A stretch of 64,000 bases of DNA from Candidatus Hodarchaeaceae archaeon (GCA_030016755.1 JASEJC010000001.1:4883-68882); one strand, 5' to 3'; counted from the stretch's first letter, positions 10,110 through 43,170 are shown. The notes: a model not told the origin generated them from the sequence alone. Numbers and translations are program-made.

Positions 10110-10436
10110 TCATAAAAGTGTTGTAAACTCACCTGTCCTCGCTTGCTTAGCAGCTTCCTTACCCTTGTCCGTCAAAGTGTAAGCGGTCAACAACCCGCGC
10201 CTTGTCTCCCCGATCAAGCCTCGTTTCTTGAGAGATCCTAACAACACATCCATCCTGCTTGGGTTCACCGAGACCCCTTGACGAGCGAAAATCTCTTGGA
10301 TGATTTCGTGCTTGCTCATCGACGTGTGCCCATATAGAAAGCCTAAGACCAGAGTTTCTAGATTATCTGCCACAAATTTTGTGCTCTTCGCGACGTCTAT
10401 CTTGCGCACATTTTCAGTCGGGAATGGGGCCTTCAT
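10110..10436 (-). CDS. PadR-like winged-helix DNA-binding protein
   Basis: 108 aa. LVLGFLYGH..MSKHEIIQEI...LLGSLKKRGLI...YTLTDKGKE follows the wHTH pattern. Its ATG overlaps the stop of the upstream gene (ATGA). Confidence 0.6.
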   Translation of the reverse strand: MKAPFPTENVRKIDVAKSTKFVADNLETLVLGFLYGHTSMSKHEIIQEIFARQGVSVNPSRMDVLLGSLKKRGLIGETRRGLLTAYTLTDKGKEAAKQARTGEFTTLL

Positions 10437-11320
10437 TTTTCCCGCCCCATCTTGCGCTTTAGCCGCTTCAACAGCCTTACATCTTCCTTTGCGCCTTTTT
10501 GCACCTTTGGCTTGCTCGGCCGCTCAAGCGTCTCAATCGCGGGTTCTTCCGCGGGCCTGAGTTTTGTCGCATGTTTCAAACGTCTGATGGTTGGGGCCAT
10601 CTCGGGTCCCCTAACCTCCGCGCCTCTGGGTTTTCTCCCCATTACCCTGCGCTTGAGCCAAGCCAGCGAGACAAATGGTTTCATCGGGCGGGTTGAGAAC
10701 CAGTAAAATGCTGAAACCCCACCTGCAACAGCGACGATCGACAGCACCGCATACAGGCCCAGCGGCGCGGGAACCCCAGCCGACTGCCCCGCCACTGCAA
10801 ATACTGAAAACCCGGGACTAGTGGCCTCGTAGTAGAGGTAGAAATCGCTAGTTTGGATCAAAGTTGTTGGTAGCTCCTGCCACGCACCGTTCAACCTCAG
10901 CAGCGTGATAGAATTTTCGTCAATGCGATTTTGCTCGGCCCAGTCTCTTAGCACCCTGAACTGAATTACCGCGTTCTCGATGTCTTCGCTCGCTTCGAGA
11001 GAGAAGTAGGTCTGCACAAGTAAGGAAGGCTCTGCGACTCCTGCTGGTTTCTCAAGCTGCTCAACTACGATATCCACTTTCTTGACGTTTTCCCCAAGCC
11101 AAAGCGTTATCCGGGTGATTGTTGGATGCCCGACCAGCACGATGCTGTGCGTGTTGGCTAGGTTGTCTTCCGCAGCGCCTTGGATTGTCATAAGATTTCC
11201 TAGTGAAGCGAGAGAGATGGGGGCAAAAGCAATCGCCGCCAGAAGGCCCACAATAAGACACCCTAAAACTTGCCCCGCCCAGTAACCTCTACCCCGTGCC
11301 TTTGCCAGGGGTCCGCTCAA
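10433..11320 (-). CDS. Membrane protein with a PGF-pre-PGF-like extracellular domain and a Lys/Arg-rich cytoplasmic tail
   Basis: N-terminal TM, then a domain ending ...YYEATSPGFSVFAVAG, a second TM, and a tail rich in K/R. The domain name is from recollection of TIGR04213-type proteins. Confidence 0.6.
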   Translation of the reverse strand: MSGPLAKARGRGYWAGQVLGCLIVGLLAAIAFAPISLASLGNLMTIQGAAEDNLANTHSIVLVGHPTITRITLWLGENVKKVDIVVEQLEKPAGVAEPSLLVQTYFSLEASEDIENAVIQFRVLRDWAEQNRIDENSITLLRLNGAWQELPTTLIQTSDFYLYYEATSPGFSVFAVAGQSAGVPAPLGLYAVLSIVAVAGGVSAFYWFSTRPMKPFVSLAWLKRRVMGRKPRGAEVRGPEMAPTIRRLKHATKLRPAEEPAIETLERPSKPKVQKGAKEDVRLLKRLKRKMGREK

Positions 11321-11433
11321 GCACTTCCCTCGTTTAACCCTTTTTTGGCCGGGCTTTTATCGGCTTTTAAAAGGTGAAAATCTTTCAAATTTTTTCGAAA
11401 CATTTATTAATCCTCGAATGGGCCCCAATATTG

Positions 11434-12072
11434 ATGAAGAAAGGCGAACGGGTTCTGCGCGAGATCCTATACCGCTTTCACGAGCGCAATGAGCGGTTCA
11501 TGAGCCAAAAGGCGCTGGCGGAGGCTTGCGGACTTTCCCTTGGCACGGTCAACCCAATCGTGCGCAGGCTAGAACAGCTTGGCGCCATCGAGAAGAAACC
11601 CCTAGGATTTAGGGTCAGCGATGTGACGCGCATCCTGCTGTACTGGGCCAGCAAGAGGAACTTGGCTAAGGATATAGTCTATAGCACCAGCACTTCCCTC
11701 TCAGCAGCAAATATTGAGAAGGACCTGCCCCAAGGCTCGGTTATGACTGCCTATTCTGGTTTCAATGCTAGATTTGGTGAAGTGCCGATAGACTATCAAG
11801 AAGTTTATGTGTATGCAGACCCGGCTGAGCTGAAGCGAAGGTTCCCCCGCGCGCGAGGCCGTTTGAATAACCTCATCGTGCTGAAGCCAGATGAACACCT
11901 CATTCGACTCAGCGAGGGAGGTATTGCCCCCCTAGCCCAGATTTACGTTGACCTGTGGCAACTTGGTGATCCGGCAAAAAAACTCGTCGATGAACTCGGC
12001 GCGCGGATGCGGGCAGGGGAGATAGGTGCGCTTCAGGGGATTATTAAAAGGACCCGGGAGCGGCCCGGATAA
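11434..12072 (+). CDS. Winged-helix transcriptional regulator with an uncharacterised C-terminal domain
   Basis: MSQKALAEACGLSLGTVNPIVRRLEQLGAIEKK forms the wHTH. The start was set at ATG 11434 (MKKGERV). Confidence 0.6.
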   Translation: MKKGERVLREILYRFHERNERFMSQKALAEACGLSLGTVNPIVRRLEQLGAIEKKPLGFRVSDVTRILLYWASKRNLAKDIVYSTSTSLSAANIEKDLPQGSVMTAYSGFNARFGEVPIDYQEVYVYADPAELKRRFPRARGRLNNLIVLKPDEHLIRLSEGGIAPLAQIYVDLWQLGDPAKKLVDELGARMRAGEIGALQGIIKRTRERPG

Positions 12073-12940
12073 TCGACTTCTCAAGCTTTAGGAGCAGAGC
12101 CTTTGCGCCCTCCAAGTTTGCCGTTTTACCCCTACACCGCGAACACGCTGCTGCTGCACGCTCGATATCTTTGCGGAAGCTCTCGTATGGTTTTGCCGCC
12201 TCAATTATCCTGTTCACAAGTGCCCGGATTTGCTTTGCCGGCACTTCAAATGTGCCACAGAAGGGGCACCCTGCCAACTCCTCAACGGCGCTGACCCTCA
12301 TTAAGGCCCGGTCTGGTCCCGATGGGTGCCGCTTCTTGACCAGGCGAACCGCATCCTCTGGGCAAACCTCCTCACAGCTGGCGCAACTGATGCACTTATC
12401 GTACATGAATTTCACCGTTCGCTTGTTGCCCTCGTCCGCCAGCTCTATCGCGGATGTTGGGCATGCCTTTTCACATGCGCCGCAGCCCGTACACTTCTCT
12501 GAATCAAGCTCGGGCTGCCCCCTGAAACCCTTGGGGGCCAGCCAGCGTCTGTACTTGACACCCATGGTCCGAGCTACCCCCTCCCCTATCGCCTGGGGAC
12601 TGGGTGGGCAACCAAGGACATACAAATTAACCGGGATGAACTTGTCCGTTGGTTCAAGAGCACTGTACGATTTCTGGAAAATCCCGCTTGATAGAGCACA
12701 CGTACCAACTGCAATCACGGTTTTGGGTTCCCTGAGCTTGTTGTAAACTTCCTTGAGGGGTCCCGCCATTTTTGCGCTGACGACTCCAACAACGAGGAGC
12801 ATATTCGCTTTCTCGGGCTCGTCCACTATTCTCGCTTTGAGATTTCCAATACCGAACCTCTCAGCCAGTGCACACACTACCTCGATGTCGCAGCCATTGC
12901 AGGAGCCAACGTTCAGGCGGTAAACTCCTATCTCGCTCAC
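12044..12940 (-). CDS. [NiFe]-hydrogenase small subunit (NuoB/MbhJ/EchC-like) fused to a 2x[4Fe-4S] ferredoxin domain and a CxxC-x37-CxxC tail
   Basis: GSCNGCDIEV, GTCALSSG and GCPPSP are the NuoB-type cluster ligands. CTGCGACEKACP and CISCASCEEVCP follow, then CPFC...CSRC. GTG start at 12940. Confidence 0.85.
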   Translation of the reverse strand: MSEIGVYRLNVGSCNGCDIEVVCALAERFGIGNLKARIVDEPEKANMLLVVGVVSAKMAGPLKEVYNKLREPKTVIAVGTCALSSGIFQKSYSALEPTDKFIPVNLYVLGCPPSPQAIGEGVARTMGVKYRRWLAPKGFRGQPELDSEKCTGCGACEKACPTSAIELADEGNKRTVKFMYDKCISCASCEEVCPEDAVRLVKKRHPSGPDRALMRVSAVEELAGCPFCGTFEVPAKQIRALVNRIIEAAKPYESFRKDIERAAAACSRCRGKTANLEGAKALLLKLEKSIIRAAPGSF

Positions 12941-12951
12941 CTCAACCCGTC

Positions 12952-14277
12952 CTAAATTCCCGTACTAAACTGTACAGGCAATTTTTCTGGCTCCATCCCC
13001 AGCTTCGCTTGGGCTACAAGCCCATCCACTGGGGACTGCATCTGCCAGCAGTCGGCGGGGACGTGCCTCGCCCCATCCTTAGCTATGTTCCAGCTCGCCA
13101 CCAAGTGACGGCTGGCCTCGAACCCGCAAGCTTTGCACCTGTAGGTGTGCCCATTCGGCCTGTTGTACCGGCCACATATCGGGCAGTCCTTCGACTTGTG
13201 GTAGTTGCTGACCTCCACCGTTGGCAGTCCTTGTCGCGCCACCTTGTACTCGGCATAGAACTGGAACTTTCGGAAAGGCCACTGGTTGAGCCTCCTGCGC
13301 ATGTCCTTCCGCAGGGCCCTGCCGTTCTTCGACTTGCGCTTCGAGCGCATGAAACCACGAATTCCCTTGATACCCCCGAAGGTGACCGCGACTCGCTCTC
13401 GCTCGGCAATCTTGGCGATCTGTTTGCTGACAACGTGTAGGATCTGGTTAGTGCGGTTGCGCTCCCTTCGCCAGTACTTCGCCTTGAGCCTGCGCTTCTG
13501 CACCGGTCGCTGCGGTGGCGTATCCAGCTTTCGCTGAATCGATTTGCGCTTGAGCTGTGACGAGTGCCTTATCGCGGGGAGCTTTGAGACATCGAGACTG
13601 ATGTGTTTTGGCTGTTCGTTTGGCTTCAGGATGGTCAAATCAACGCTCTGCTCGTTGATGTCTATGCCGCAGATGCCCTCCGTTGGCCTCGGTTCCACCT
13701 CGCACTTGAACGGCACAAAAACATTGGCTCGATCTTTGAATAGCGAGATCGTGATTTCCCCGACTTTCTTTTTACCTTCCCGCCAGTCGCGGAGGTATCG
13801 GAGTACGTGGTGCTCGGTCACCACGAGCGGAAGCCAAAGGTACTCCCCGCGACGGATTCTGATTTGAATCACATTTCCGCAGAACCTGCAAACGCCAGTT
13901 TGGTTTCTATCGCCCCAGAGTTCTAGGCGCATTGTCCGCGCTTTGTAGGCGGGTGGCTTCTCCGGGTTCGCCTGTCCTTGGCGACAGAGCTTCCGCCACG
14001 AGCGGAGCGTCTGCGTAGCCATCTGCCCGGCCGAGTGGAACCAGTGCGTCGCTAGATCAAAGCGCGACTTCCACTCCTCGTAGGCGACGTGATGTAGCGA
14101 GGCGCGGGAAGTAACCTTATGTTCGAGGCACTTCTGGATGTAGAAGTTAACCGACTCCGCGAACTTGCCGAGGAGATCGCCCAGCAGCTCGCGCTTTCGC
14201 CCAGTCAGCGGAGGTGTAATGAATCTAGCGGAGCTGACGGACTGCACATCTTCTACCTCCGATGCGTTTTCTACCAT
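12952..14277 (-). CDS. TnpB-like (IS200/IS605 OrfB family) protein with apparently degenerate RuvC motifs II and III
   Basis: GICGIDINE (RuvC-I), zinc ribbon CPICG...CKACG and C-terminal WNIA are present. The expected IVxEDL reads VAVTFGGI, and the expected RDxNAAxNI reads RHLVASWNI. The track ORF extends to GTG 14412. ATG 14277 (MVENAS) lies about 45 nt downstream of a TATA-like box. Confidence 0.85.
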   Translation of the reverse strand: MVENASEVEDVQSVSSARFITPPLTGRKRELLGDLLGKFAESVNFYIQKCLEHKVTSRASLHHVAYEEWKSRFDLATHWFHSAGQMATQTLRSWRKLCRQGQANPEKPPAYKARTMRLELWGDRNQTGVCRFCGNVIQIRIRRGEYLWLPLVVTEHHVLRYLRDWREGKKKVGEITISLFKDRANVFVPFKCEVEPRPTEGICGIDINEQSVDLTILKPNEQPKHISLDVSKLPAIRHSSQLKRKSIQRKLDTPPQRPVQKRRLKAKYWRRERNRTNQILHVVSKQIAKIAERERVAVTFGGIKGIRGFMRSKRKSKNGRALRKDMRRRLNQWPFRKFQFYAEYKVARQGLPTVEVSNYHKSKDCPICGRYNRPNGHTYRCKACGFEASRHLVASWNIAKDGARHVPADCWQMQSPVDGLVAQAKLGMEPEKLPVQFSTGI

Positions 14278-14320
14278 TTTCTGCCCAAGCCACTTTGGGG
14301 GAGGGGGGTCTCCGAAAGTA

Positions 14321-14338
14321 ATATATAAACTATTTAAA
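14321..14338 (-). promoter_or_regulatory. TATA-like box (minus strand CCTTTAAATAGTTTATATAT) upstream of the TnpB-like ORF
   Basis: AT-rich box in an otherwise GC-rich spacer, about 45 nt upstream of ATG 14277. Confidence 0.4.
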
Positions 14339-14449
14339 GGGCTCCCAGGCACGACCTGATTGTCTTCTAGAGCCCATTTTTGGTGCCTTTTTTCGCCATT
14401 TTTCAGGGGCACCGAAAGTATTCCCCGAATGATACGGTCTGGTACGGTT

Positions 14450-15595
14450 TTATGTAGCAGCTACAACACCCCTCAGCTCATCTAAAGTGACCCGCCTGCT
14501 CCTTCCCGTCCGCTCGTCCACGACAGTGACGCGATTCGTACAGGAGATGCAACGGTCCAGGCTCTCCAAAATCACTGGGAAGTCGGCTAGTTTTTGTTCG
14601 CGGAGCATCTCCACGACGGCTCGATCGTTCATGTAAGTAGGTGGCCTGAGCTTAACCCGTTCTGGATAATTTGTTCCGTTCGACCTCACATAATAAATAA
14701 GCTCGCCTCGCGGTGCCTCCACTCTGCTGAAGTCCTCCCCAACCAGCGGCTCCCTAATATCCACGCTAATTTCACCTTTAGGCATGCGCTCGATTAGCTG
14801 TCGGATAATTTTCACGCTTTCCAAAGTCTCCCTCGCCCGAACCAAAGCCCTTGAAAAAACATCGCCCTCCTCTTCCGTGGGGATTTCGAAATCCACTTCC
14901 CCATAGGCGGCATACGGGTCGTCTTTCCGTATATCGCTTTCAACACCTGATGCTCTGAGCACGGGGCCCACTACACCGTATGCCCTTGCTTTACCCCTAG
15001 GTAGGGGACCGAGCCCCGAAAGCGTGGGCGCTGCATTCCTAAGCTCTCTTGAAATGTCATCAGTGAGGGTTTCGAGGTCACCCATCAGAGACTTCACTGC
15101 TGCCAACATCCTCTTGGTCACGTCGCGCCTGACCCCACCTATCGAATTTATCGAAAAGTGCACCCGGTTGCCGCAGATGGACTCGATTAAATCCATCAAG
15201 CTCTCACGAGCGTTGATGATTTTAATGAACTGACCTTCGTTGTGTAGTGTATGAAAAAACAACCCAAACCACATGTAATGACTGTGCAAACGATCCATCT
15301 CAAAAACTAGTGACCTGATATTTCTCGCCCGCGCCGGAACTTCCGCGCCGAAAATCTTTTCCACCGCTTGGCAATATGCCGTGGAGTGGGCTTGGGAGCA
15401 CAACCCGCATACGCGCTCAGCCAGGAAAACATTTTGAACAAATGACTTCGATTCCATCAGGCGCTCAATCCCACGATGCGTATAGCCTTGCCTAATTTCC
15501 ACATCAGTAATTTTGCCATCGCGCACAGTAATCTCGTATAACTCTGGCTCCAGCAACAAGGGGTGATATGGCCCTACCTTTACCACATCGAACAT
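14450..15595 (-). CDS. [NiFe]-hydrogenase large subunit, group-4-like (EchE/MbhL/NuoD fold)
   Basis: N-terminal Ni-binding pair RVCGLCSQAH and C-terminal pair DRCISCTNR are both present. VGPYHPLLLEP and GYTHRGIE are family motifs. Confidence 0.9.
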   Translation of the reverse strand: MFDVVKVGPYHPLLLEPELYEITVRDGKITDVEIRQGYTHRGIERLMESKSFVQNVFLAERVCGLCSQAHSTAYCQAVEKIFGAEVPARARNIRSLVFEMDRLHSHYMWFGLFFHTLHNEGQFIKIINARESLMDLIESICGNRVHFSINSIGGVRRDVTKRMLAAVKSLMGDLETLTDDISRELRNAAPTLSGLGPLPRGKARAYGVVGPVLRASGVESDIRKDDPYAAYGEVDFEIPTEEEGDVFSRALVRARETLESVKIIRQLIERMPKGEISVDIREPLVGEDFSRVEAPRGELIYYVRSNGTNYPERVKLRPPTYMNDRAVVEMLREQKLADFPVILESLDRCISCTNRVTVVDERTGRSRRVTLDELRGVVAAT

Positions 15596-16462
15596 TTACC
15601 CAATCCTCGCAGCCAGTTGGGAGACTGGGCTTCGATGAAACTCTAACGACAGCTCCTTTGCAGGTACACTAAAGGCGAGGGCTAGAAGCTCAGCTAAGTG
15701 TAGACATGGGACCGAAAACTTTTCGCCGTATCTTCTGAGGTCAAGCTGCCCTGATTCAAACTGAACGTTGCATGCGGGACACACCACCGTGACGCCATCG
15801 ACCCCCACGTGTTGATAGCACTTCAGCTTAGGGAGGAGGTTGTGCTTCAGCGAAAACTCTTTATCTACTTGGGATGTCGGAAAACCGCAACACATCTGAT
15901 CTAAATCACAGCGGATGACCTCAGCCCCCGTCGCGCGCACTAGCTCCTCGAACTGCCTTGGCTTCCTCCAGATGTCTCCACCGTCTTCCTCCCTGAAGAG
16001 GTGACAACCGTAGTGTACCGCTAGCTTCAGGTTAAGCGGTTTCTTGACCCGCTCCTTTATCGCTTCGACTCCGACATCCTCATGGAGAACCTCTACAATG
16101 TGCCTGACCTTTATTGTCCCCCCGTACTTCCTCCCCACCTTGGTCAAGAGCTCATTGATCTCGCCGGCAGTTTCCTCCTGTTTCATGGCTTCGTTGGCCT
16201 CCCACAGTGTCTCAAAACAGCCGTTGCACAGCACCACAACATCGAGGCCCTGTTTCTCCGCTATGCTCAAGTTCCTAGCCGATAGGGAGAGCGCGACCTT
16301 CCTATCCATCAGGCGTGCCAAGATTGGGTCCGGGCAACATGTGTAGCCCGACATGTCCGCGATCTCGAGCCCAAGCGAACTGAAAACTTTGCGTGTGGCC
16401 AGTTCAGCGCTGGGGAGCCGCTGGGGTATCAAACAACCCAAGAAAAGAGCATATTTTTTCAC
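15596..16462 (-). CDS. HdrB-like protein with two CCG domains (heterodisulfide-reductase subunit B family)
   Basis: YALFLGC...YTCCPDP and ...QMCCGFP...CPAC are the CCG-type Cys motifs. The probable GTG start at 16462 overlaps the NuoC-like stop (GTGA). Confidence 0.8.
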   Translation of the reverse strand: MKKYALFLGCLIPQRLPSAELATRKVFSSLGLEIADMSGYTCCPDPILARLMDRKVALSLSARNLSIAEKQGLDVVVLCNGCFETLWEANEAMKQEETAGEINELLTKVGRKYGGTIKVRHIVEVLHEDVGVEAIKERVKKPLNLKLAVHYGCHLFREEDGGDIWRKPRQFEELVRATGAEVIRCDLDQMCCGFPTSQVDKEFSLKHNLLPKLKCYQHVGVDGVTVVCPACNVQFESGQLDLRRYGEKFSVPCLHLAELLALAFSVPAKELSLEFHRSPVSQLAARIG

Positions 16463-17130
16463 TTTTTCGTCCCCCTCAATTTCTTCCGCTCCCAATCGTA
16501 GCCGACCCGCTCGCTGAAACTCGTCTGCTTGATTAGCTCGTGAACCTCTTTCAGCTGGGGCTCGCTCGAGTAACTTGCGGGGGGTTGGGGAGGTAGCCCC
16601 GCCTCCACGCGCCTGCGCTCAACCAAGGGAGTTATGGGCGCAGTGGCACCGACGGTTGTAATAGCCTCAGCTACGGGGGTGATTTCATCTGGCACTGGGG
16701 GCTTGAAGGGCTTGCCCAGCGGGAAACTGCCCTCCGGCCACTCGTCTTGTAACACCAAATGCCTCGGCTCGGGATGGTCCCTGAATTTCGCCCCGCAAAG
16801 CTCGGCTGCCTCCTTCTCCGCCCATTCCGCCGCCGGAGTCAGGCCGACTATGCTATCGATTTCAGGGTTCTCCTTCGCCAACCTTGTTTTCAGCACCACG
16901 ACCCTACCCGTTAAATCGAAGTGGTAAAGCAACTCGATATCCAACCCCACATCGATGGCTGCGATGATTATGAACCGTGCCCCCCCACCAAGCAGGCTCT
17001 CGGTGGCCTTTCTTATCGCCCCAGGTGTTATCTCCGCCCAAACCTTGCGTTCTCGAGGCGTGGACGCGTTCAGAAGTTCGTCCCCGAGGTTTTCCTTCAG
17101 GAGTTTAACTATTGCGTTTTCCTCCACCAT
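16459..17130 (-). CDS. NuoC/MbhK/EchD-like 30-kDa hydrogenase subunit
   Basis: LLYHFDL...PAAEWAEKEAAELCGAKFRDHPEPRHL. The start was set at MVEENAIV (17130), after AAAGGAGGTG, overlapping the upstream stop (TAATG). Confidence 0.85.
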   Translation of the reverse strand: MVEENAIVKLLKENLGDELLNASTPRERKVWAEITPGAIRKATESLLGGGARFIIIAAIDVGLDIELLYHFDLTGRVVVLKTRLAKENPEIDSIVGLTPAAEWAEKEAAELCGAKFRDHPEPRHLVLQDEWPEGSFPLGKPFKPPVPDEITPVAEAITTVGATAPITPLVERRRVEAGLPPQPPASYSSEPQLKEVHELIKQTSFSERVGYDWERKKLRGTKK

Positions 17131-17705
17131 TACACCTCCTTTAGATATCGACTTCGCATGAACTCTGACGCTTCGGCGCGGGTGCCAACCCTGATCGCTT
17201 GAGGGGAGCAGTACTTGGCGCACTGAGGGTCGCCGTCGCAGAAGTTACACTTGGTTGCGACGCGGTGCTCCTCGTCGAACCATGCTGCGGCAAGGGGGCA
17301 GGCGTAGATGCAGGAGCGGCAACCGGTGCACTTCATCGGGTTTATTGCCACCCATCCCGTGCGCTCGTCCCTAGTAATTGCGTCCTCCGGGCAGGCGGCA
17401 ACGCACACCGGGTTCTCGCAGTGTAAACAGTTGTTCGCTTCACGCACAAACTTCTGATCGTCGATGAAAACATGAATATGGGATTTCTCCGGGTTGAGGG
17501 TGCCGAAGTTTCTGTGGGCGCACGCGATCTCACAATACCGGCAACCCGTGCACCGTTCCGCATCGTAGATAAGCACGAGCTGCTCCTCCTTAGACTTCTC
17601 CAAGAGGGTCGCCTCTTTTGCCGAAAGGGGGCTGATGCGCTTAAGGCTTTCGTTTCTTGCCACCCAAGCTGCGTTCGAAAATTTCCTCGCCCGGTTTCCA
17701 CCCAA
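17130..17705 (-). CDS. Poly-ferredoxin of the HycB/DmsB type (four Cys clusters)
   Basis: CTGCRYCEIAC, CLHCENPVCVAACP, CTGCRSCIYACP and CNFCDGDPQCAKYC. The start is uncertain because the ORF overlaps the 3' end of the upstream gene by about 65 nt. Confidence 0.8.
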   Translation of the reverse strand: MGGNRARKFSNAAWVARNESLKRISPLSAKEATLLEKSKEEQLVLIYDAERCTGCRYCEIACAHRNFGTLNPEKSHIHVFIDDQKFVREANNCLHCENPVCVAACPEDAITRDERTGWVAINPMKCTGCRSCIYACPLAAAWFDEEHRVATKCNFCDGDPQCAKYCSPQAIRVGTRAEASEFMRSRYLKEV

Positions 17706-18612
17706 AACGCTCCTGAATCACGGTGTAGGCGGCAGATGGGGGGATGATGCCCTGTTCGGTTATTATAAGGTCTATGTACTCGGCGGGGGTGACATCAAAT
17801 GCGGGGTTTCTAATCTTCAGCCCCGGGAACCGCTTTGGGTTCACCACCTCGCTTGGGTCGCGCTCCTCTATCTCCACCAGCTGTCCTACTAGGGTCCCTG
17901 GGTGAAATTTGTATGTCTCCGCCGCCACGAAGAATGGCACCCTAGCCTCGTGCGCGGTCATGGCTATCTGGGCGGTCCCTATCTTGTTCACGACCGCCCC
18001 ATTTGCCGCGATGCTGTCTGCCCCGACCACCACTTTGCTGACATCGCGGATGAAATAGCGCACCGCAGAGTCGATTATGAGCGTGGTGGGTATGCCGGCT
18101 TTGAGGAGTTCTTTAACGCTAATCAGGCCTTGCCAAGCTGGGCGCGACTCGGTGACAAATACCTTGATATCTTTTCCCTGCTTGAAGGCCGTTTCGATGA
18201 CGGACAGGGCACATTGGCTGTTGCAGTGGGTCAGCAAAGTGTCGCCATCTGAAATCCTGTTCGCCCCTATCTCACCGATGCGTCTAACTGCCTCATTTGA
18301 GCTCTTAATGAATTCGTCGGCGCGAGAGATCACAACTTTTCGAAGCATGGCAAGGTCAGTACCGCGTGCCTGCTCAAGGCTCAAGTTAACGTAACGGATT
18401 GCATTTGGTAGGGAAACCGCGGTCGGTCGTGTGCTGAGCAAGAGCCTCGATACGCGGTTTATCTCCCTAGTGAACTCAGCTGCCGTTTTAGCCCTAGTAT
18501 CTTTCGCTGTGATTTTCAAGGCTCGCGCGGCCGCCCTCGCTATATTGCCCGCACCCCTGATACGCATCGACTTGATATCACGAGCTATTCGCTTTACCTC
18601 GGCTACTGCCAT
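17641..18612 (-). CDS. eIF-2B alpha/beta/delta-family protein (ribose-1,5-bisphosphate isomerase-like)
   Basis: IRGAGNIARAAA, GADSIAANGAVVNKIGT and FFVAAETYKF. About 323 aa counting from MAVAEVKR. Confidence 0.8.
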   Translation of the reverse strand: MAVAEVKRIARDIKSMRIRGAGNIARAAARALKITAKDTRAKTAAEFTREINRVSRLLLSTRPTAVSLPNAIRYVNLSLEQARGTDLAMLRKVVISRADEFIKSSNEAVRRIGEIGANRISDGDTLLTHCNSQCALSVIETAFKQGKDIKVFVTESRPAWQGLISVKELLKAGIPTTLIIDSAVRYFIRDVSKVVVGADSIAANGAVVNKIGTAQIAMTAHEARVPFFVAAETYKFHPGTLVGQLVEIEERDPSEVVNPKRFPGLKIRNPAFDVTPAEYIDLIITEQGIIPPSAAYTVIQERFGWKPGEEIFERSLGGKKRKP

Positions 18613-18663
18613 AAATTCCACCAATCTTTATACTCGTCCTCCAGATTAAAACAATTGGAACGT

Positions 18664-18894
18664 TCACTTTCGAATGCGGCGGCGGAGCTCGTTGAGGAAT
18701 ATCTGCGCATCTGTTTTCCTTGTCACATCCGCCCGCCCGGAGATTGTTCGCCTCACATTCTCGATGAATACGTCAACACTTTCACTGTTCTTGAGTTCAC
18801 TCTCGATCAATTCCTTTAGTTCCTGCGGGTAAACGATGTAGGGCGAAACCGACGAAAGCGAGTCCCTTATAAGCCTCGCATCATCTTCGCGCAT
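18664..18894 (-). CDS. Small hypothetical protein
   Basis: 76-aa ORF in operon-like position after the Lrp gene. No recognisable motif. Confidence 0.4.
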   Translation of the reverse strand: MREDDARLIRDSLSSVSPYIVYPQELKELIESELKNSESVDVFIENVRRTISGRADVTRKTDAQIFLNELRRRIRK

Positions 18895-30100: not shown

Positions 30101-33100
30101 TTATTTATTCTTGCCCTTGGCGTTGCCTCGCCCCTGATTACCGCCACCTTGGTCTAGGTTTCCACCACGTTGCCCTGGCCCTGCCCGCCACCCTGATTCT
30201 CCTTGACCTTGGCCCGGAGATTGACCGCCCTGCTCGGGAGGCGTTTGGGGTGGGCCTTGTCCCTGCCCTTGGTTTCCACCCTGCCCCGGCGTCCCGCCCG
30301 ATTGGCCTGGCGGAACTTCTGGCCTGTTCCCGTGACCTTGGCCCTGTCCCTCACTAGGTTTGATAACCCGGATGGTGTCGCTTCCTCTGAACGGTGCGGA
30401 GCCCCACTTGCCGATTACCGTCAGCTCAACATTGTCACCAACGCTCACCAGCCCTTGCACGGCCGAGCGATCGAACTTAACCATCAGGTCTGGCACGCCG
30501 TCGCCGTCGTGGTCACCGATCTCGGTTGGCCAAGGCTCAGCGGATAGGATTCCCTCGAGGAAGATGTCGCCCTCGAGAGCCACGGTGCTCACGTCGATTT
30601 TCGCCACATCAAGGCCGCCCGGCAGCTCGATGTAGCAGGTTATCCAGCGGCCTTGGCTACGGAGGTTTAGAGTTTCAGGGTCGATGTCGATCATAGCGGG
30701 TATCAAGGTGGCACACCTGGCGTCGGCTTCCGGTGGCGGCCCCTCGACGTTTCCCGCCACATCGCAGGCTATAGAGTAGAACTCGTAGAAGCCGTGGCCT
30801 GCTGGTATGTCGAACGACCACTCGTAGGGCTCCTCGTTGTCGGCCCCGAACGATGTCCAATCGCCCCAAGTTGAATTGTCGAGCGAATGGCGGTAGTAAA
30901 GCTCGACGCTCGCGACGCCGCTCAGTCCATCCGATGCTGTGGCGGTAATTGCAAAAGGCGTCAAGGTCTGCCAGTAGGGCTCGATCGGATCGACCGAGGA
31001 GACCGGTGGAGTAGTGTCAACCCCGATCCTCTCATCGGGCTCCTCGGGTGCCTTCTCGACATTTCCGGCAACGTCTGCGGCGATCGAGTAGAGTTCGTAG
31101 TAACCATTGCCTTGGGACGGGTCGAACTGCCAAGCGTACGGGGACTGGTCATCAGCGGCGTAAAGCGTCCAGCCCGACCAGTTGAGGTTATCGGGCGAGT
31201 AACGGTAGTATAATCTGACATCCCTCATTCCGCTTGGTACGGCACCGTTCGGCGGGACTGGATCGTTTGCCGCGGCAGTCACTTCAATTGGAAGCATCGA
31301 AGCGTTGTGCCAGTGGGGTTCGATTGAGTTAAGGCTGGAAATGGGGGGCAGCGTGTCGACGCCCGCCTGTGCATCGGCACTCTCCGGGGCCGCCTCACGG
31401 TTTCCGGCTCGGTCCGCCGCAACCGAGTAGAACTCATAGAAGCCATCGCCAGCGGGGGCATCGAATGTCCAAGAGTAAGGTTCGGAATTGTCTATGTCGT
31501 AAAGCGCCCAGTCGCTCCATGTTGAGTTATCAGCGGAGTATCGGTACCACAGTTCAATGTTTTCGGCTCCACTCAGCGCGTCGGAAACCGTGGCGGTTAC
31601 CTGGAACGGGACCGTCCCCGCGTTCTGCCACAATGGGCTGACTGGGTCAACGGAAGATAATGGTGGCATAGTGTCAACGCCGCACATCGCGCCCGTAACC
31701 ACGGCCTTCACGGTTGGAGTGTACTTCCAGCCGCCATCCGTGTAGATGCTCTCGCCGTTCCACACCGCGTCCCATATGGTTCCAATCCCAGAGGCAACGG
31801 ACATCAATCCTCCTGAGGGTAACTCATACCTCCAGATCTTGCCATCTTGCCACACAAGGTACAGATATCCATCACCGGGTATCATTATCGAAACTATCGC
31901 CACGGGATACGGGTATCCGGGCGCTTGCACGGGTGTGACGCCGGAGATCGTCTTCAATCTGACCCAGCTATCGGAAGAAATCGTATACCTCCACAGTTCC
32001 AATGAATAATATGTCCCCTCAAGGAGCGCATAAATGTGATCCCGTCCATCCCACGTCAAGTCCGCTGCCAGCATGCTAGACGGGAACGATAGGGTATCCC
32101 ACCTGTTGCCCGAGATGGAGTACCGCAAGAAGATCCCACCGTTGTCCAAGGTGTAAATGTAATCGTCGCCAGTCCATACCAGTGCCCCCCTGTGAATCCC
32201 GATGGGAGTTGATGCCATGCTCTCCCAGCGGTTTGCTGAGATGGAATATCGCCAGAAGTCATGCTTGGGGTCGAAGTAGTAGCCTCTAAGGGCGTAGAGA
32301 TGCCCATCTGCCCAAATCAAGCTGTTGAAGCTCGCCCCTTCAGCCGGCATAGCGGTCAGGTGCGTCCACGTATTGTTGGAGATAGAGTAACTCCAGAGTT
32401 CGCTCCATGTGCGCATGTATACCTTGTCGCCCCCATCCCAAGCCAGCCCCCTCCAGCCCTCGGTGGATGCCGGAGCCGAGATGGAAGAGAACGTTCCATC
32501 AACATGAACTACTGAGACAGCCCCCCTCATCCCCTCCGCGTTGCCAGCGCGATCTGTTGCGACGCTTGTGAACTCGTAGTACCCGTCCCCCGCAGGAGAA
32601 TCGAACTTCCAAGTCCAAGGCTCGTTGTCATCGATGCCGAGCGACCGCCACTCGGACCAGCTTGAGTTATCTGGCGAGTAGCGGTAGAAAAGCTCAACGT
32701 TACCGACCCCTGAGAGGATATCCGACGCTTTTGCGGTCACCTCAAGCGGGAGGGTCTCATCATTTTGCCAATAAGGCGTTATTTGGTCGAGGTAAGATTC
32801 TGGAGGCGTGGTGTCCACACCAGCTCTAGCAGTCGCCTTCGGCCATGTTATGTGTGTGTCCACATTCACATCGCCGAATAGGTCAAACCATACTGTGTAA
32901 ATGTAGTCGGATGTATCAGATCCAGCAAACTCGCTTCTGATGTTCCCATCCACAGAGATGACCTCAATGTTACCAATTCGAACAGGTTCGGGTAACCATA
33001 TCCGACCTCTGAAACCTTCTAGCTCCTCCACCCATTCATCAACAGGCTCAGGAATCCAGTGCCGGCCCCATATTTCTTTTATTTCCATCCTTACCCTGAT

Positions 33101-36100
33101 ATCGACGTCCATCATGGTTACATCTATCCACGTGGGCCACCAACCATTCTCCCAATATCCGTAAAAGTTCTCGCCTTCGATCTCGATCCAAATCCCATAA
33201 GTTCCATTCGGGTTCCCGGGATTTCCTCCGTACTCATACTCTGGGGCCTCGACCTCATATGGTCCGCGCTCAAAAGAGGCCCCTGCCTCACCCCTAAGGC
33301 TTCCTATGAGCGTTCTCGATTCGACCACGGGCTGCTCGAGGTTCCCCGCCCTGTCAACGGCGAGGGTGCCGAACTCGTAGTAACCGTCCTCCTCGGGGGC
33401 GTCGAATGAGCACTCCCATGGCCACTCGTTATCAACACCGTAAAGCCTCCAGTCGTTCCAGCCCATGTTGTCATTTGAGTACCTGTAGAACAGCATGACC
33501 TCTTTAACGCCGCTCCGGTCGTCCGTCGCGGTTGCCGTGATAGTGAAAGGCAGCTCACTTTGCCAGTAGGGTGAGATCGTATCTACAGATGAGGTGGGCG
33601 GGACGGTATCGATGTAGACGTATGTGGCCCCCGACCAATCGCTCCAAGCCCCCGCCCCGTTCTGTGCGCGGACCTTGATGTAATAAATGCCATCAGCTAA
33701 AGTTGGATGATAGCTAGTATCCGTTGTGTAAAACGTGTCTTCCGACCAAGAGCGGTATACCTCATATTGATTCACCCCAGTATCAGGATCGCTTGCTACC
33801 CAGTACCAATGCGGTGAATTGTGGTTCGACCATTCTCTGCCGCAGTGATCCTCACCGACTATCGGGGTAGTTGGAGGCGTTGTATCCACGACTAAGGTGT
33901 AAGTGCCGTCACCGCTAATTTTACGAACCTCGATATAGTAATAACCCGACATCTCCGCAGTATAGATTATCTCCTCGCTCATGTGGCCTAGATGTGTGGA
34001 ACTCGCGATTAAGTTCTGTTCAGGATCGTATAGATGAAGGTCGAAATCACATTCGTGGTTTTCTTTTATGCCAATCGTTTTGCCCTTTTCTGCCCCAATT
34101 TGATAAAAGTCCTTTATATCCACCCCTCTTAAGCTGCCTGTGTATCTCCCCGAAAGTATCCTCCTTGGGCAATCAAGATTATCGCCTGCATCGCCTGCGA
34201 ATCCCGCATCAAATTGTTGTTCGATCCTAATCATCTCCGTGTCTAAATAACTTACCCCGGCGTATTTCGCTCTTGCTCTCAGGAGATAAGTGCCGCTTGG
34301 AGCATTTGCCGGCGCAAATATTGACTCCCTATAATACGCAGAACTGCCTGATCCGAGGGTAGTCCTATCAATAAGTCCGCCACTGATGGTCTGGCCATTA
34401 CTGTCCATGAACTCCAAGTATACATCAACTCGCTCTAAAGTGCGTGGTAAGTTATTACGCACATCGAAGAGAACGTAAAACTCATCGCCTGCCATAACTT
34501 CTGAAGGGGCCTCTAATAAATTAACGGTCAGCTCATTAATGACCCTCATCGGCATTTGTGGATCACCTAGCAAAACTGTTGTCAGTATCAGACCCCGATT
34601 ATTTGGATCACCGACCCCTTTCTCTTGTAAGTACTGCCGCTTTGCGGCATCTAAACACACCGCCGGTTGGTACCGATGTTCTGTAAAAAATTTCTGCCAA
34701 AAAAGAACATCAAGTTTTCCGCTTAAATCCTCATTAAGACCAGGTTCAAAAAGAACTCCGTGCACGTATGGTGCCTCTCTAGAGTTACCTACATAAGCGA
34801 TTGCAGTTTTTCCTTCGACAAAGGGACTGTATAGAGAATATTCACCTATCGTTGGTTTATCGTAATCGAAACTCGCAGAATAACATGCTACTACATACAT
34901 CAAAAAACCTTCTGAATTTGTAAGTTGAGCTACCGTGCATTCTCGGTAAAATGGAAAAAAGTCCTTTTTTCCTTTCTTTCCTTTTGCCGATAACTCAATT
35001 TCGTTTCCATGTGAAAACGAGTTAATGATTCCGGGTTCAAGTTGATTTATGGCATTCACTACGTTTATCTCTGTTAAATTCGCATCTTCGTCATAAAGTG
35101 TATGAGTGTCAACCTGCCCCCTTGCGAAATTAGCTATGGGGGCTTTAACTTCTGAACCATAATGGTCCCTAGTCCAACTTTGGTATATCCAGCCGCCGAG
35201 TAAAAGGAAATCCTCAACCGCCGGGCGATTAGCACCATACTCTGTGATCTTTTTAATAGATGGGGTTGGTACCCTGCTGACGTGGACCTCTGGTATCCAA
35301 TCTACTTCATCAAAAATTATCGATCCTAAAAAGGAAGCAAATTCACCGAAATTGCTATTGGTATTGTAATCGTCCCAAGTTCCATCCAAACAAGCATAAT
35401 AAGAATCTGCTGGCGCAAACGCTCGCCAAACCTCTCCGCGTTTCTTTGCTTGTTCTTCGAATATCCCATACAAGCGTACGTATCTTGTAGGAAGTTCCCA
35501 GTAATTGTCAAGCGCTGGTGGCTGCGGTGTCGCATCATAGGACGTTGGCCTATCGGCTGGATCCACGTCACCATTCAACAACACCCACTTGACATTTTTA
35601 TTAAGATAATACCATTTAATGCAATTTCTTATTTTTTCCGGTATATCTCTACCTTGGTAAGTATTTGTGATGCCGAGTGTGACATGGTCAAAAATCACGT
35701 TCCCGTCTTCGCTTTGATCTACCGTGACAACGTATGTTTCTAACCCCCAATCCTCTTTTTGCCGTACAAAGGCGTTCAAGTCCGCATCAACTAACTTTGG
35801 TCGCGTCACGATGAGGTAACCATCATCATTTGAGTTCTCTTGGGAGGCTAAATCATCATGTTTGATTTCAGACTCTAGACTATTATATGGAGGGTCTACT
35901 TCTACATACACCTTAATTTGTTCATAAAATACCATCTCCCCTACTGAAGGACGATATTGAATCGGGTAAACCCAGATGCCAATTACTAGCGACCCTCCTT
36001 CCCCACCCACCACCATAGCTTCCCCCAAACGTCCGGGATAGAATAAACCTGAATTATAAACGTTCCCATCCAGAAATAAAACCGTTGATTGTGATGTTTG

Positions 36101-36499
36101 TGCTGGTATAATGTAACTACCTTCAGTAAGTTGAAGTGTAATAGGGTCACTTGTTTCAAAACTAACGCTTACTATCTGTGGCAGCTCTTCTAACAAACAA
36201 CCGTCAGCCCAAGGAACTTTCAACAAATGCCCTTTGTAAGGCAACATCGGCTTGCCTTGAGCATTTAAGTAGGTACAATTTTCAATTCTCACAATGCTAT
36301 AATTTTCGTTTTCTTCGATTCGAGGAAAATCAAACGTAAATGTGTATTCAACTATTACGTTTTGGTTGTCTGATATAGTCTCGGCTGCCATGCTCACTTG
36401 AGAAGTGCCATTTTCTACGAGCGTGAAACCAGAAGTTAAAGGAATAAAACAAAGCAATAAAAAACCAAATATTGGTAGAATCCTAATAATCCATTTGAT
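30101..36499 (-). CDS. Giant secreted/surface protein: C25-type cysteine peptidase + CARDB-like + PPC domain + repeated Ig-like modules + Kelch-like propeller + Gly/Gln/Pro tail
   Basis: Uninterrupted 2118-aa track ORF (TTG 36457). The in-frame upstream codons encode a signal-peptide-like KWIIRILPIFGFLL beginning at ATC 36499. The domain evidence is listed under the separate features. Confidence 0.9.
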   Translation of the reverse strand: MKWIIRILPIFGFLLLCFIPLTSGFTLVENGTSQVSMAAETISDNQNVIVEYTFTFDFPRIEENENYSIVRIENCTYLNAQGKPMLPYKGHLLKVPWADGCLLEELPQIVSVSFETSDPITLQLTEGSYIIPAQTSQSTVLFLDGNVYNSGLFYPGRLGEAMVVGGEGGSLVIGIWVYPIQYRPSVGEMVFYEQIKVYVEVDPPYNSLESEIKHDDLASQENSNDDGYLIVTRPKLVDADLNAFVRQKEDWGLETYVVTVDQSEDGNVIFDHVTLGITNTYQGRDIPEKIRNCIKWYYLNKNVKWVLLNGDVDPADRPTSYDATPQPPALDNYWELPTRYVRLYGIFEEQAKKRGEVWRAFAPADSYYACLDGTWDDYNTNSNFGEFASFLGSIIFDEVDWIPEVHVSRVPTPSIKKITEYGANRPAVEDFLLLGGWIYQSWTRDHYGSEVKAPIANFARGQVDTHTLYDEDANLTEINVVNAINQLEPGIINSFSHGNEIELSAKGKKGKKDFFPFYRECTVAQLTNSEGFLMYVVACYSASFDYDKPTIGEYSLYSPFVEGKTAIAYVGNSREAPYVHGVLFEPGLNEDLSGKLDVLFWQKFFTEHRYQPAVCLDAAKRQYLQEKGVGDPNNRGLILTTVLLGDPQMPMRVINELTVNLLEAPSEVMAGDEFYVLFDVRNNLPRTLERVDVYLEFMDSNGQTISGGLIDRTTLGSGSSAYYRESIFAPANAPSGTYLLRARAKYAGVSYLDTEMIRIEQQFDAGFAGDAGDNLDCPRRILSGRYTGSLRGVDIKDFYQIGAEKGKTIGIKENHECDFDLHLYDPEQNLIASSTHLGHMSEEIIYTAEMSGYYYIEVRKISGDGTYTLVVDTTPPTTPIVGEDHCGREWSNHNSPHWYWVASDPDTGVNQYEVYRSWSEDTFYTTDTSYHPTLADGIYYIKVRAQNGAGAWSDWSGATYVYIDTVPPTSSVDTISPYWQSELPFTITATATDDRSGVKEVMLFYRYSNDNMGWNDWRLYGVDNEWPWECSFDAPEEDGYYEFGTLAVDRAGNLEQPVVESRTLIGSLRGEAGASFERGPYEVEAPEYEYGGNPGNPNGTYGIWIEIEGENFYGYWENGWWPTWIDVTMMDVDIRVRMEIKEIWGRHWIPEPVDEWVEELEGFRGRIWLPEPVRIGNIEVISVDGNIRSEFAGSDTSDYIYTVWFDLFGDVNVDTHITWPKATARAGVDTTPPESYLDQITPYWQNDETLPLEVTAKASDILSGVGNVELFYRYSPDNSSWSEWRSLGIDDNEPWTWKFDSPAGDGYYEFTSVATDRAGNAEGMRGAVSVVHVDGTFSSISAPASTEGWRGLAWDGGDKVYMRTWSELWSYSISNNTWTHLTAMPAEGASFNSLIWADGHLYALRGYYFDPKHDFWRYSISANRWESMASTPIGIHRGALVWTGDDYIYTLDNGGIFLRYSISGNRWDTLSFPSSMLAADLTWDGRDHIYALLEGTYYSLELWRYTISSDSWVRLKTISGVTPVQAPGYPYPVAIVSIMIPGDGYLYLVWQDGKIWRYELPSGGLMSVASGIGTIWDAVWNGESIYTDGGWKYTPTVKAVVTGAMCGVDTMPPLSSVDPVSPLWQNAGTVPFQVTATVSDALSGAENIELWYRYSADNSTWSDWALYDIDNSEPYSWTFDAPAGDGFYEFYSVAADRAGNREAAPESADAQAGVDTLPPISSLNSIEPHWHNASMLPIEVTAAANDPVPPNGAVPSGMRDVRLYYRYSPDNLNWSGWTLYAADDQSPYAWQFDPSQGNGYYELYSIAADVAGNVEKAPEEPDERIGVDTTPPVSSVDPIEPYWQTLTPFAITATASDGLSGVASVELYYRHSLDNSTWGDWTSFGADNEEPYEWSFDIPAGHGFYEFYSIACDVAGNVEGPPPEADARCATLIPAMIDIDPETLNLRSQGRWITCYIELPGGLDVAKIDVSTVALEGDIFLEGILSAEPWPTEIGDHDGDGVPDLMVKFDRSAVQGLVSVGDNVELTVIGKWGSAPFRGSDTIRVIKPSEGQGQGHGNRPEVPPGQSGGTPGQGGNQGQGQGPPQTPPEQGGQSPGQGQGESGWRAGPGQRGGNLDQGGGNQGRGNAKGKNK
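30104..30358 (-). repeat. C-terminal low-complexity Gly/Gln/Pro-rich tail ending GNAKGKNK
   Basis: aa ~2034-2118: GQGQGHGN...GQGGNQGQGQGPPQTPPEQGGQSPGQGQG. No C-terminal TM or PGF-type sorting signal. Confidence 0.8.
30713..31678 (-). repeat. Three tandem ~106-113-aa repeat modules (VDTxPPxSSV...SGV...YRYSxDNxxWxxW...PYxWxFDxPxGxGxYEFYSxAxDxAGNxE)
   Basis: aa 1594-1915 of the track ORF. Two further diverged copies lie at nt 33302-33613 and 32498-32821. Confidence 0.85.
31688..32461 (-). repeat. Kelch-like beta-propeller (about six blades) inserted between repeat modules of the giant protein
   Basis: Recurrent blade pattern: ...LWSYSISNNTW..., FWRYSISANRW, FLRYSISGNRW, LWRYTISSDSW, IWRYELPSGG. 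Each is preceded by a G-x-hydrophobic-Y strand. Confidence 0.7.
33887..34204 (-). other. Pre-peptidase C-terminal (PPC)-like domain of the giant protein
   Basis: GDAGDN...DIKDFYQIGAEKGKTIGI...DFDLHLYDPEQNLIASS...GYYYIEVRKISGDGTYTLVV follows the PPC pattern. Confidence 0.65.
34538..35830 (-). other. Peptidase C25 (gingipain/caspase-fold) catalytic region of the giant protein
   Basis: Domain opening YLIVTRPKLVDADLNAFVRQKEDWGLETYVV. Candidate catalytic His in NSFSHGNE (aa 483) and Cys in YVVACYSASF (aa 525). Confidence 0.7.
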
Positions 36500-36544: not shown

Positions 36545-37276
36545 TTAGAACCTCCTCCTGCGCTGCCAAATTAGTAGCTGAACCCCGATGCTCATGAGCA
36601 CCACAAGTAAAATACACCAAAACCATGGAAAATAAGAAACCTCTCTAATTGGAGTGTCTGGCACCCTCCCGCGATTGTAAATCCATAGAGGTGTACCAGT
36701 TTCGCGGTTTAGGAGAATCAGTTCTTCGTTACGATCTTTTATTCCTCTGGCTACCACATAATCTCCGCCTGCTGAAATCGCAACTGGGGGTTCAAAGACA
36801 AGAAATATAGACCAGAGCGGAGTGTTATTTTCTTTAGAAAATGTGAGCACGTTAAAAAAGGTACTGGCAACGATGTATGTACCGTCCGAGGAGATACCCA
36901 CGTATGCTATATACTCGCTATAGGACCATAGGGGTTGATTGTCTTGGTTCGAAAAGAGGTAAAGGGCGTTGGAAGCGCCAGCTGCTATGTAATCCCCATT
37001 ATCTGAAATTGACATACAGCCCATAAGAGTTTCGTAACTCCACAGTGGTTGGTTATCCTCACGAGAGAACAAACAAAAGCCCTGAGAAACAGTAAAAGAT
37101 GCCACAATAAATCTGGCGTCTGATGATATCTCGAGGTGAGAATCATAGTGAACCCACGCGCTAGCATGTCCGCTCACCAATAACATAATAACAGCGGCAA
37201 TTGCTGTGATCAAAATTAAGGTGCTACGTAAAGGTGGCAGAGAAGTGTACTTTTCTTTATACATCTGAATCTCCAT
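36545..37276 (-). CDS. Membrane-anchored beta-propeller-repeat protein (PQQ/WD-like repeats) directly upstream of the giant gene
   Basis: N-terminal TM. Four repeats end in (E/Q)(D/E)NQPLWSY / NNTPLWSI / TGTPLWIY. C-terminal TM followed by RRRRF. Confidence 0.65.
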   Translation of the reverse strand: MEIQMYKEKYTSLPPLRSTLILITAIAAVIMLLVSGHASAWVHYDSHLEISSDARFIVASFTVSQGFCLFSREDNQPLWSYETLMGCMSISDNGDYIAAGASNALYLFSNQDNQPLWSYSEYIAYVGISSDGTYIVASTFFNVLTFSKENNTPLWSIFLVFEPPVAISAGGDYVVARGIKDRNEELILLNRETGTPLWIYNRGRVPDTPIREVSYFPWFWCILLVVLMSIGVQLLIWQRRRRF

Positions 37277-37528
37277 TTCTAACTTACCCTGGTGGCTTAA
37301 ACGCTTTAGATATCAATCTTGATTTTTTGGACTAACCCAGCGCTCATGCTGATTCTGGTCTCCGCCCAGTAGCGGGCCTGACGGGATTCCGACCCAGCGT
37401 GGGGAATTGGGTCTGCTTAATCTCGATACTCACCATAAGTGATAATCTAGCCTTGTATTTGTACTTCCTATGGGCGAAGGAGGTGCTGACGGTCATCTTC
37501 AGGTGCCCCTCTCATCTCCCGACGACTA

Positions 37529-37912
37529 TCACATAAACAAGTATTGGGTCGTCGTGGGCAGCTCCCTCCGCAGAGCCGCAACCTCGGGCCGATAAATCAG
37601 CAGCTCCCCAGCAGCTCGTTTGTTCAAGATTTTGCCCGCCACCCTCGCCTCCGGCTCCCCGCTGATCCTCGCCGCCCCTCTGCCGAGTTTTGGATCAAGC
37701 GCGATCAGGATCGGCAACTGGAGTTTATCCCAATCCGTTTCGGGCAGGAGCTTAGAAAGGGACTCGAGCTCTTCGCGCTTGAAGAAGTGGGTGCTACCAT
37801 CGCGCGTCCGAACTGAGGGTTTTGGGGACGAGAGTGCCTCCCGCAAAGATATGCGCCTCTCGGGCAGGTGGACGTTGAGCCGCCCAAGCTCGAGTTTGAT
37901 GATGCGCTCCAC
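37529..37912 (-). CDS. UPF0216/DUF61-family archaeal protein
   Basis: LELGRLNVHLPERRISLREAL...VRTRDGSTHFFKREELESL...LQLPILI matches my recollection of the DUF61 pattern. Confidence 0.65.
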   Translation of the reverse strand: MERIIKLELGRLNVHLPERRISLREALSSPKPSVRTRDGSTHFFKREELESLSKLLPETDWDKLQLPILIALDPKLGRGAARISGEPEARVAGKILNKRAAGELLIYRPEVAALRRELPTTTQYLFM

Positions 37913-37914
37913 GC

Positions 37915-40641: not shown

Positions 40642-40654
40642 GACATGCCCCCCC

Positions 40655-43166: not shown

Positions 43167-43170
43167 CGGG

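Follow-up and report, generated by a model that had tools for sequence, protein, structure and literature searches.

What does a [NiFe]-hydrogenase of the group 4 type do when its genes stand beside that of the heterodisulfide reductase subunit HdrB and no membrane subunit is encoded with them? The question is raised by a module located at positions 12044-17705 of a 64,000-nucleotide stretch of DNA (referred to here as the window), recorded as Candidatus Hodarchaeaceae archaeon (GCA_030016755.1, JASEJC010000001.1:4883-68882). An earlier note on this DNA had proposed a soluble NuoBCD-type hydrogenase wired to a CCG-domain reductase, and this proposal is supported by the lack of membrane genes and transmembrane segments in the module and by its conservation in relatives. 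Our reading, to which we give a probability of about 0.6, is that the module encodes a cytoplasmic, non-bifurcating H2:disulfide oxidoreductase of the group 4 lineage (Nuo, Mbh and formate hydrogenlyase, FHL), in which the membrane arm has been lost and HdrB serves as the output.

Open reading frames (ORFs) were called in the window and scanned with Pfam and NCBIfam profiles, and single subunits were compared with the sequences of solved structures. The gene order and coordinates given in the earlier note were reproduced exactly (Table 1): the six genes, all on the minus strand, encode a HycB/DmsB-like polyferredoxin, a NuoC-like subunit, HdrB, the [NiFe] large subunit, TnpB, and a NuoB-like small subunit with a fused ferredoxin domain. 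The profile scans found no membrane-subunit genes in the module, and no transmembrane segment was predicted in any of its proteins. Genes of the HdrA, HdrC and MvhD types were absent from the module according to the scans and to a comparison of homologous loci, the search for HdrA being confined to the module. FdhF is also absent from the module, where HdrB holds the output position.

The best NCBIfam matches of the large subunit were NuoD/FpoD, not Vhu, Mvh or Frh, and its match to NiFeSe_Hases (54 bits) was limited to N-terminal residues 41-110. A group 3c Mvh-type partner for HdrB was rejected, since the large subunit is of the NuoD type. Both Ni-binding cysteine pairs are kept (L1, RVCGLCSQAH; L2, DRCISCTNR), and the L2 motif is followed by a 26-aa C-terminal tail typical of HycI-cleaved precursors. 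The closest solved chains are HycE of Escherichia coli FHL (7z0s_E) and MbhL of Pyrococcus furiosus (6cfw_L). The Ni motifs and the tail were found in every member of the membrane-free clade described below. A search for maturation genes, suggested in the earlier note, detected HypA, HypC, HypD, HycI and a HypE-like AIRS protein in the host genome, so that the means to assemble the Ni site and to cleave the tail are at hand. Judged by these motifs, the tail and the maturation genes, the enzyme is a genuine hydrogenase, as the earlier note had argued from the two cysteine pairs.

Each of the two CCG domains of HdrB carries the C...CC...CxxC pattern, and the closest solved chains are HdrB in the Hdr-Mvh structures 8rvu and 5odc (E about 1e-71). 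With its noncubane [4Fe-4S] CCG domains, HdrB is presumed to be the disulfide-reducing site of the module. Its gene lies between those of the NuoC-like and large subunits, an arrangement kept in all relatives. In the small subunit, the NuoB domain (Oxidored_q6) spans residues 14-123 and two 4Fe-4S ferredoxin motifs occupy residues 144-200; the closest solved chains are MbhJ (6cfw_J), HycG and HycF. NCBIfam profiles assigned the fused domain to the NuoI/FHL iron-sulfur subunit type. The polyferredoxin, present in every module copy compared, was not assigned by NCBIfam to the HdrC family but is of the four-cluster HycB/DmsB type. Alignment with homologs of 154-175 aa places its true start probably ∼30-38 codons downstream of the listed TTG, and the NuoC-like subunit, whose homologs have 221-222 aa, probably begins near residue 32.

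The distribution of the module was determined in a tblastn survey covering 85 group 4 loci, which separated (i) the membrane-free HdrB type of the window, (ii) membrane-bound HdrB types with an antiporter and NuoH (Ehd-like), and (iii) Mbh-type loci without HdrB. The Ehd-like loci came from Methanomethylicia (L046), Bathyarchaeia (L022/L056), Desulfurococcales (L024) and Hermodarchaeota (L035/L036). The occurrence of the same five-gene set in related genomes, proposed in the earlier note as a check, was borne out in Hadarchaeota, Bathyarchaeia and NC10/Methylomirabilota bacteria, in each case without TnpB. It was found in five Hadarchaeota loci from metagenome-assembled genomes, MAGs (L005, L015, L016, L017, L019), in the Hadarchaeales MAG GCA_038872135 (L003/L018), in a Bathyarchaeia MAG (L020) and in two NC10 loci (L023 and L027), with a rearranged gene order in L027, which lies on a 1 Mb contig and has no membrane genes. 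Being conserved across so many genomes, the module is far beyond chance. Group 4 in the HydDB sense comprises membrane-bound, energy-converting enzymes. Neither NuoH nor an antiporter was part of the module in the window or in any of 11 homologous membrane-free loci. Every membrane-free clade member that had a full-length small subunit (ten in all) showed the fusion of this subunit with the ferredoxin domain, which was absent from each of the 56 membrane complexes; on this distribution, it is a clade-specific rebuild.

Two features adjoin the NC10 copy in L027. A lipoyl synthase gene (radical SAM, LIAS_N) lies ∼2 kb downstream (CAWJSJ010000001.1, about 10168-11109). A neighbouring 546-aa ORF was considered as a membrane anchor and rejected, as it has no transmembrane segment and matches no Pfam family.

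The host genome (G000; 834 kb, 87% complete), in which the window belongs to contig C11, most likely comes from a Hadarchaeota archaeon, given that its core genes (SAMS, TGT, IF2B) and the module genes are 74-85% identical to those of Hadesarchaea/Hadarchaeota MAGs. The Hadarchaeota loci often share the isomerase and SAMS/TGT neighbourhood with the window. Another copy of the module, with the same SAMS/TGT/IF2B surroundings, was found on a contig of a MAG labelled Hodarchaeaceae (GCA_030018135.1; L001/L002). Carriage by an Asgard archaeon was rejected in this case: the core genes of the contig are 70-76% identical to those of the Hadarchaeota-like window genome, a similarity that points to probable mis-binning, with a Hadarchaeota contig placed in the Asgard MAG. 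A nickel-responsive regulator of the NikR type (RHH_1 and NikR_C) is encoded downstream of the module on this contig (L001, 11069-11512).

The relationships of the large subunits were analyzed in a quick IQ-TREE run with 85 relatives, in which Ehd was represented by L046. All membrane-free large subunits formed one clade (SH-aLRT 99; 13 rows, including two partial contigs), standing apart from both the membrane-bound HdrB types and the Mbh types. The Ehd large subunit (L046) fell outside this clade. In the L2 motif, the Hadarchaeota subclade has a Pro-to-Arg replacement (DRC, as in DRCISC), whereas DPC is retained in the clade members from Bathyarchaeia and NC10 and throughout the membrane complexes.

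A careful IQ-TREE analysis of HdrB, rooted on other CCG proteins, joined the hydrogenase-linked HdrBs, including that of the Methanomethylicia Ehd locus, in one clade (94/94) separate from HdrB of the HdrABC type. Within it, the membrane-free HdrBs were monophyletic (95/96) and nested among the membrane Ehd-like HdrBs, as sister to one subclade of these (92/89). Subject to the caveats of rooting, this topology suggests that HdrB was recruited once to group 4 hydrogenases and that the membrane-free form was derived from a membrane-bound ancestor.

HdrB-interacting group 4 hydrogenases have been described as Ehd (Methanomethylicia), Ehe (Culexarchaeia), Drh (Methanocellales) and Ehg (Nezhaarchaeia), with an ion antiporter in Ehd, Ehe and Ehg, none reported for Drh, and HdrBC listed for Ehd and Ehe (PMC9723716). 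The statement in the earlier note that HdrB normally partners with group 3c Mvh is therefore outdated, and the HdrB of the module falls in the lineage of these enzymes. Ehd and Ehe have in common with the module a group 4 core (NuoD-type large subunit, NuoB-type small subunit and NuoC), a polyferredoxin and HdrB in one cluster; Ehd also has an HdrB of the same clade, and L046 shares the order of polyferredoxin, NuoC and HdrB. However, the window module lacks NuoH and the antiporter, its ferredoxin is a domain of the small subunit and not a separate protein, its large subunit belongs to a monophyletic clade not placed beside that of Ehd, and it is carried not by methylotrophic methanogens but by Hadarchaeota, Bathyarchaeia and NC10.

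Drh (Lyu and Lu 2015) is called a 'putative membrane-associated' disulfide-reducing hydrogenase in PMC6046458. It resembles the module in combining HdrB with a group 4-type hydrogenase that reportedly lacks the ion antiporter (PMC9723716). It differs in occurring in methanogens that make the CoM-S-S-CoB heterodisulfide of coenzymes M and B (CoM and CoB), while the window host appears to lack Mcr and ComA. With Drh compared by its description, sequence relationships place the module in the known HdrB-linked group 4 lineage; what is new is a membrane-free branch with a clade-specific fusion of small subunit and ferredoxin, distributed across archaea and bacteria.

Among enzymes with solved structures, E. 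coli FHL-1 (group 4a; HycE/HycG/HycF/HycB and FdhF; 7z0s) has the same electron-relay layout: a NuoB-type small subunit, a NuoI-type two-cluster ferredoxin, and a HycB-type polyferredoxin that docks the output enzyme, with HycE as the closest solved large subunit. In the module, however, HdrB replaces FdhF, the HycC/D membrane arm is missing and the small subunit incorporates the HycF-like domain. P. furiosus Mbh (group 4d; 6cfw) provides the closest solved subunits (6cfw_L and 6cfw_J) and shares the Ni-site motifs and the C-terminal tail, but it is a membrane complex with a Mrp-like antiporter and a NuoH-like subunit, and has no HdrB. The electron-bifurcating Mvh-HdrABC complex (group 3c) likewise couples H2 oxidation to heterodisulfide reduction at HdrB and supplies the closest solved HdrB chains; in contrast, the window large subunit is of the NuoD/group 4 type and not MvhA, and the cluster contains no HdrA, HdrC or MvhD.

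From these comparisons we infer an electron path, a direction of the reaction, the nature of the substrate and the solubility of the complex in the cell. The Ni-Fe site in the NuoD-type large subunit would oxidize H2. From there the electrons would enter the NuoB-type small subunit at its proximal [4Fe-4S] cluster, cross the fused NuoI/HycF-like two-cluster domain and the HycB-like four-cluster polyferredoxin, and arrive at the pair of noncubane CCG clusters in HdrB, the site at which a disulfide would be reduced to two thiols. The absence of a flavin subunit (no HdrA is encoded in the module) argues against electron bifurcation. As the membrane subunit is absent too, the reaction would conserve no energy and would be both exergonic and dissipative. 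For comparison, E0' of CoM-S-S-CoB/thiol is about -140 mV, and that of H+/H2 about -414 mV. The role of such a reaction would be regeneration of a thiol pool or disposal of electrons.

The last transfer step was modelled with an ESMFold2-based complex prediction using residues 30-191 of the polyferredoxin and HdrB, each with an alignment. The model reached an ipSAE of 0.69 (0.73, 0.67 and 0.69 in individual runs), compared with 0.00 for the best control, and a partner pLDDT of 88. In the predicted interface, cluster-binding segments of the polyferredoxin (about residues 51-58 and 161-169) face the second CCG domain of HdrB, around C164 and C202/C203. The model lends support to binding of the two proteins and is consistent with the polyferredoxin acting as an electron bridge to HdrB, as HycB does to FdhF in FHL.

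Neither McrA nor ComA was found in the host genome (at 87% completeness), so CoM-S-S-CoB is unlikely to be made there, with the same caveat. Because Mcr and ComA are missing and the genome encodes no CCG protein other than the HdrB of the window, the enzyme of this host probably acts on a disulfide other than CoM-S-S-CoB. It might reduce a different low-molecular-weight disulfide, a disulfide of a lipoyl group or of a protein, or else a persulfide. The lipoyl synthase gene near the NC10 copy hints weakly at lipoyl disulfides as a possible substrate, and echoes the presence of GcvH in the Ehe clusters of Culexarchaeia.

The persulfide option leads to an alternative, which we consider unlikely, in which the module would be an H2-dependent persulfide or polysulfide reductase resembling a sulfhydrogenase, with the CCG site of HdrB handling sulfane sulfur as in sHdr. 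Sulfane-sulfur chemistry is known for HdrB-like sHdr proteins, and both the failure to detect Mcr or CoM/CoB biosynthesis (McrA and ComA searches) and the NC10 copy near lipoyl synthase could be counted in its favor. However, the conserved neighbourhood yielded no sulfur-metabolism genes, and HdrB scores as a true CoB-CoM HdrB (TIGR03288) and not as the sHdr type.

The earlier note had also raised the possibility of membrane partners encoded at another locus. NuoH and an antiporter do exist in the host genome, but the sole copy of each belongs to a second, separate group 4 cluster on contig C24. This is the energy-converting hydrogenase of the genome, a minimal yet complete membrane enzyme of the Mbh type with catalytic subunits of its own. 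This cluster comprises genes for a Mrp/NuoL-type antiporter (506 aa), a 109-aa protein, a NuoB-type small subunit, a NuoC-type subunit, the large subunit, NuoH and a 2x[4Fe-4S] ferredoxin; HycI, HypC, HypA and the HypE-like AIRS protein are encoded beside it, and HypD on contig C19. The HdrB module might thus add another soluble arm to the C24 complex, docking on the membrane arm and sharing its anchor, with ion translocation possible. The presence of exactly one NuoH and one antiporter is in keeping with this, as is the Hadarchaeales MAG GCA_038872135, in which a membrane Mbh cluster with its own catalytic subunits lies directly upstream of the module (L003). We nevertheless regard docking as improbable. 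The C24 cluster has a small subunit, NuoC and large subunit of its own and thus does not simply lack a soluble arm that the HdrB module would supply. Moreover, the two large subunits belong to different clades, most relatives' modules adjoin soluble genes (e.g., ribose-1,5-bisphosphate isomerase) and not membrane genes, and the fusion replaces the free HycF-like ferredoxin that sits beside NuoH in membrane complexes.

Operation in reverse, as an H2-evolving valve fed by reduced ferredoxin at the polyferredoxin or by thiol oxidation at HdrB, with HdrB as a redox or regulatory accessory, appears no more probable than docking. The group 4 relatives FHL and Mbh usually evolve H2, which is a point for it. 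The proposal of Hadarchaeota as H2-producing fermenters or CO oxidizers (PMC11009646) is another. Against these stand the strongly endergonic character of thiol oxidation to H2 without coupling and the lack of both a membrane arm for an ion gradient and a flavin for bifurcation. NuoD-type large subunits can lose Ni binding, as in Ehr complexes, yet a non-catalytic Ehr-like core serving as an electron scaffold between ferredoxin and HdrB is highly improbable and was rejected on the Ni-binding cysteine pairs and processing tail kept in every clade member and on the maturation genes HypA, HypC, HypD and HycI.

The TnpB gene, a single copy in the host genome without a TnpA companion, sits at the exact junction of the large- and small-subunit genes. 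In homologous loci, every one of which is free of TnpB, the large-subunit gene ends with ...LDELRRLK* and its stop codon overlaps the ATG of the small-subunit gene. In the window this end is replaced (...LDELRGVVAAT*, with GVVAAT in place of RLK) and the small-subunit start is GTG instead of ATG; both hydrogenase genes remain in frame despite the insertion. An Rfam scan of positions 11500-18700 at E<=0.1 gave no RNA family and, in particular, no match to a TnpB omega-RNA model. By comparison of the loci, TnpB is a recent insertion and not a part of the module.

Several points weigh against an H2:disulfide oxidoreductase. The proposed direction and substrate were derived from thermodynamics and family knowledge. 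At 87% genome completeness, a missing Mcr, ComA or membrane anchor is no proof of absence. The score of the polyferredoxin–HdrB model may owe something to the resemblance of this pair to solved HdrB-HdrC/ferredoxin interfaces, and the module may match the already described Drh type, which was compared by its description. Finally, TnpB, lying between the two subunit genes, might interfere with small-subunit expression in this strain.

The flanking genes, described in the earlier note as an eIF-2B-family gene and an oppositely oriented regulator, were identified as a ribose-1,5-bisphosphate isomerase and an HTH_24/MarR-like regulator convergent with the small-subunit gene. The isomerase adjoins the module in most Hadarchaeota loci, which represents conserved synteny. 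Elsewhere in the window, a large protein with a gingipain-like peptidase domain, unusual as an archaeal surface protease, is encoded in a stretch of lower GC content (about 32-40 kb, GC 0.45-0.48). The window also carries an A-type ATP synthase cluster.

Table 1. Features of the module, its neighbours and other loci of the window.
Feature	Position	Strand	Length	Identification and remarks
HTH_24/MarR-like regulator, convergent with small-subunit gene	11374-12072	+		Profile scans
NuoB/MbhJ-type small subunit with fused NuoI/HycF-like 2x[4Fe-4S] domain	12044-12940	-	298 aa	GTG start
TnpB, RNA-guided, IS200/IS605-IS607-type	12952-14412	-	486 aa	NF040570, 102.6 bits (above cutoff)
[NiFe] large subunit, NuoD/group 4 type	14450-15595	-	381 aa	Complex1_49kDa, 212 bits
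HdrB, two intact CCG domains	15596-16495	-	299 aa	TIGR03288 (CoB-CoM heterodisulfide reductase B), 276 bits
NuoC-like (30 kDa) subunit	16459-17223	-	254 aa	Pfam Complex1_30kDa; NCBIfam FpoC/NuoC
HycB/DmsB/HybA-type 4x[4Fe-4S] polyferredoxin	17130-17705	-	191 aa	Pfam Fer4_11, NCBIfam; four CxxCxxCxxxC(P) motifs
Ribose-1,5-bisphosphate isomerase (archaeal AMP pathway), upstream neighbour	17641-18624	-		TIGR00511, 445 bits
Peptidase C25 (gingipain-like) protein	30101-36457	-	2118 aa	Peptidase C25 and propeptide, Big_7/Big_13 bacterial Ig-like domains, Kelch motifs
A-type ATP synthase cluster	36545-46764			AC39 subunit, V_ATPase_I, catalytic A subunit

A wider proposal, which we put forward tentatively and at somewhat less than even odds, is that these modules form a lineage of their own among the HdrB-linked group 4 hydrogenases, one that is membrane-free and has spread horizontally. 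The lineage, with DRC in its Hadarchaeota members, would have arisen from Ehd-like complexes by loss of NuoH and the antiporter and by fusion of a HycF/NuoI-like ferredoxin onto the small subunit, would catalyze the cytoplasmic, H2-dependent reduction of a non-CoM disulfide in non-methanogens, and would have passed between the archaeal groups Hadarchaeota and Bathyarchaeia and the bacterial Methylomirabilota/NC10.

The module illustrates the modularity of group 4 hydrogenases, with the membrane arm dropped and the output enzyme exchanged (HdrB for the FdhF of FHL), and the fusion of small subunit and ferredoxin is a clear structural signature by which further members of the family can be recognized and annotated. 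If the enzyme is indeed a soluble, non-bifurcating H2:disulfide oxidoreductase of non-methanogens without CoM and CoB, HdrB chemistry would serve a second disulfide/thiol pool in deep-subsurface archaea and in some bacteria, and the meaning of 'heterodisulfide reductase' would be widened beyond methanogenesis.

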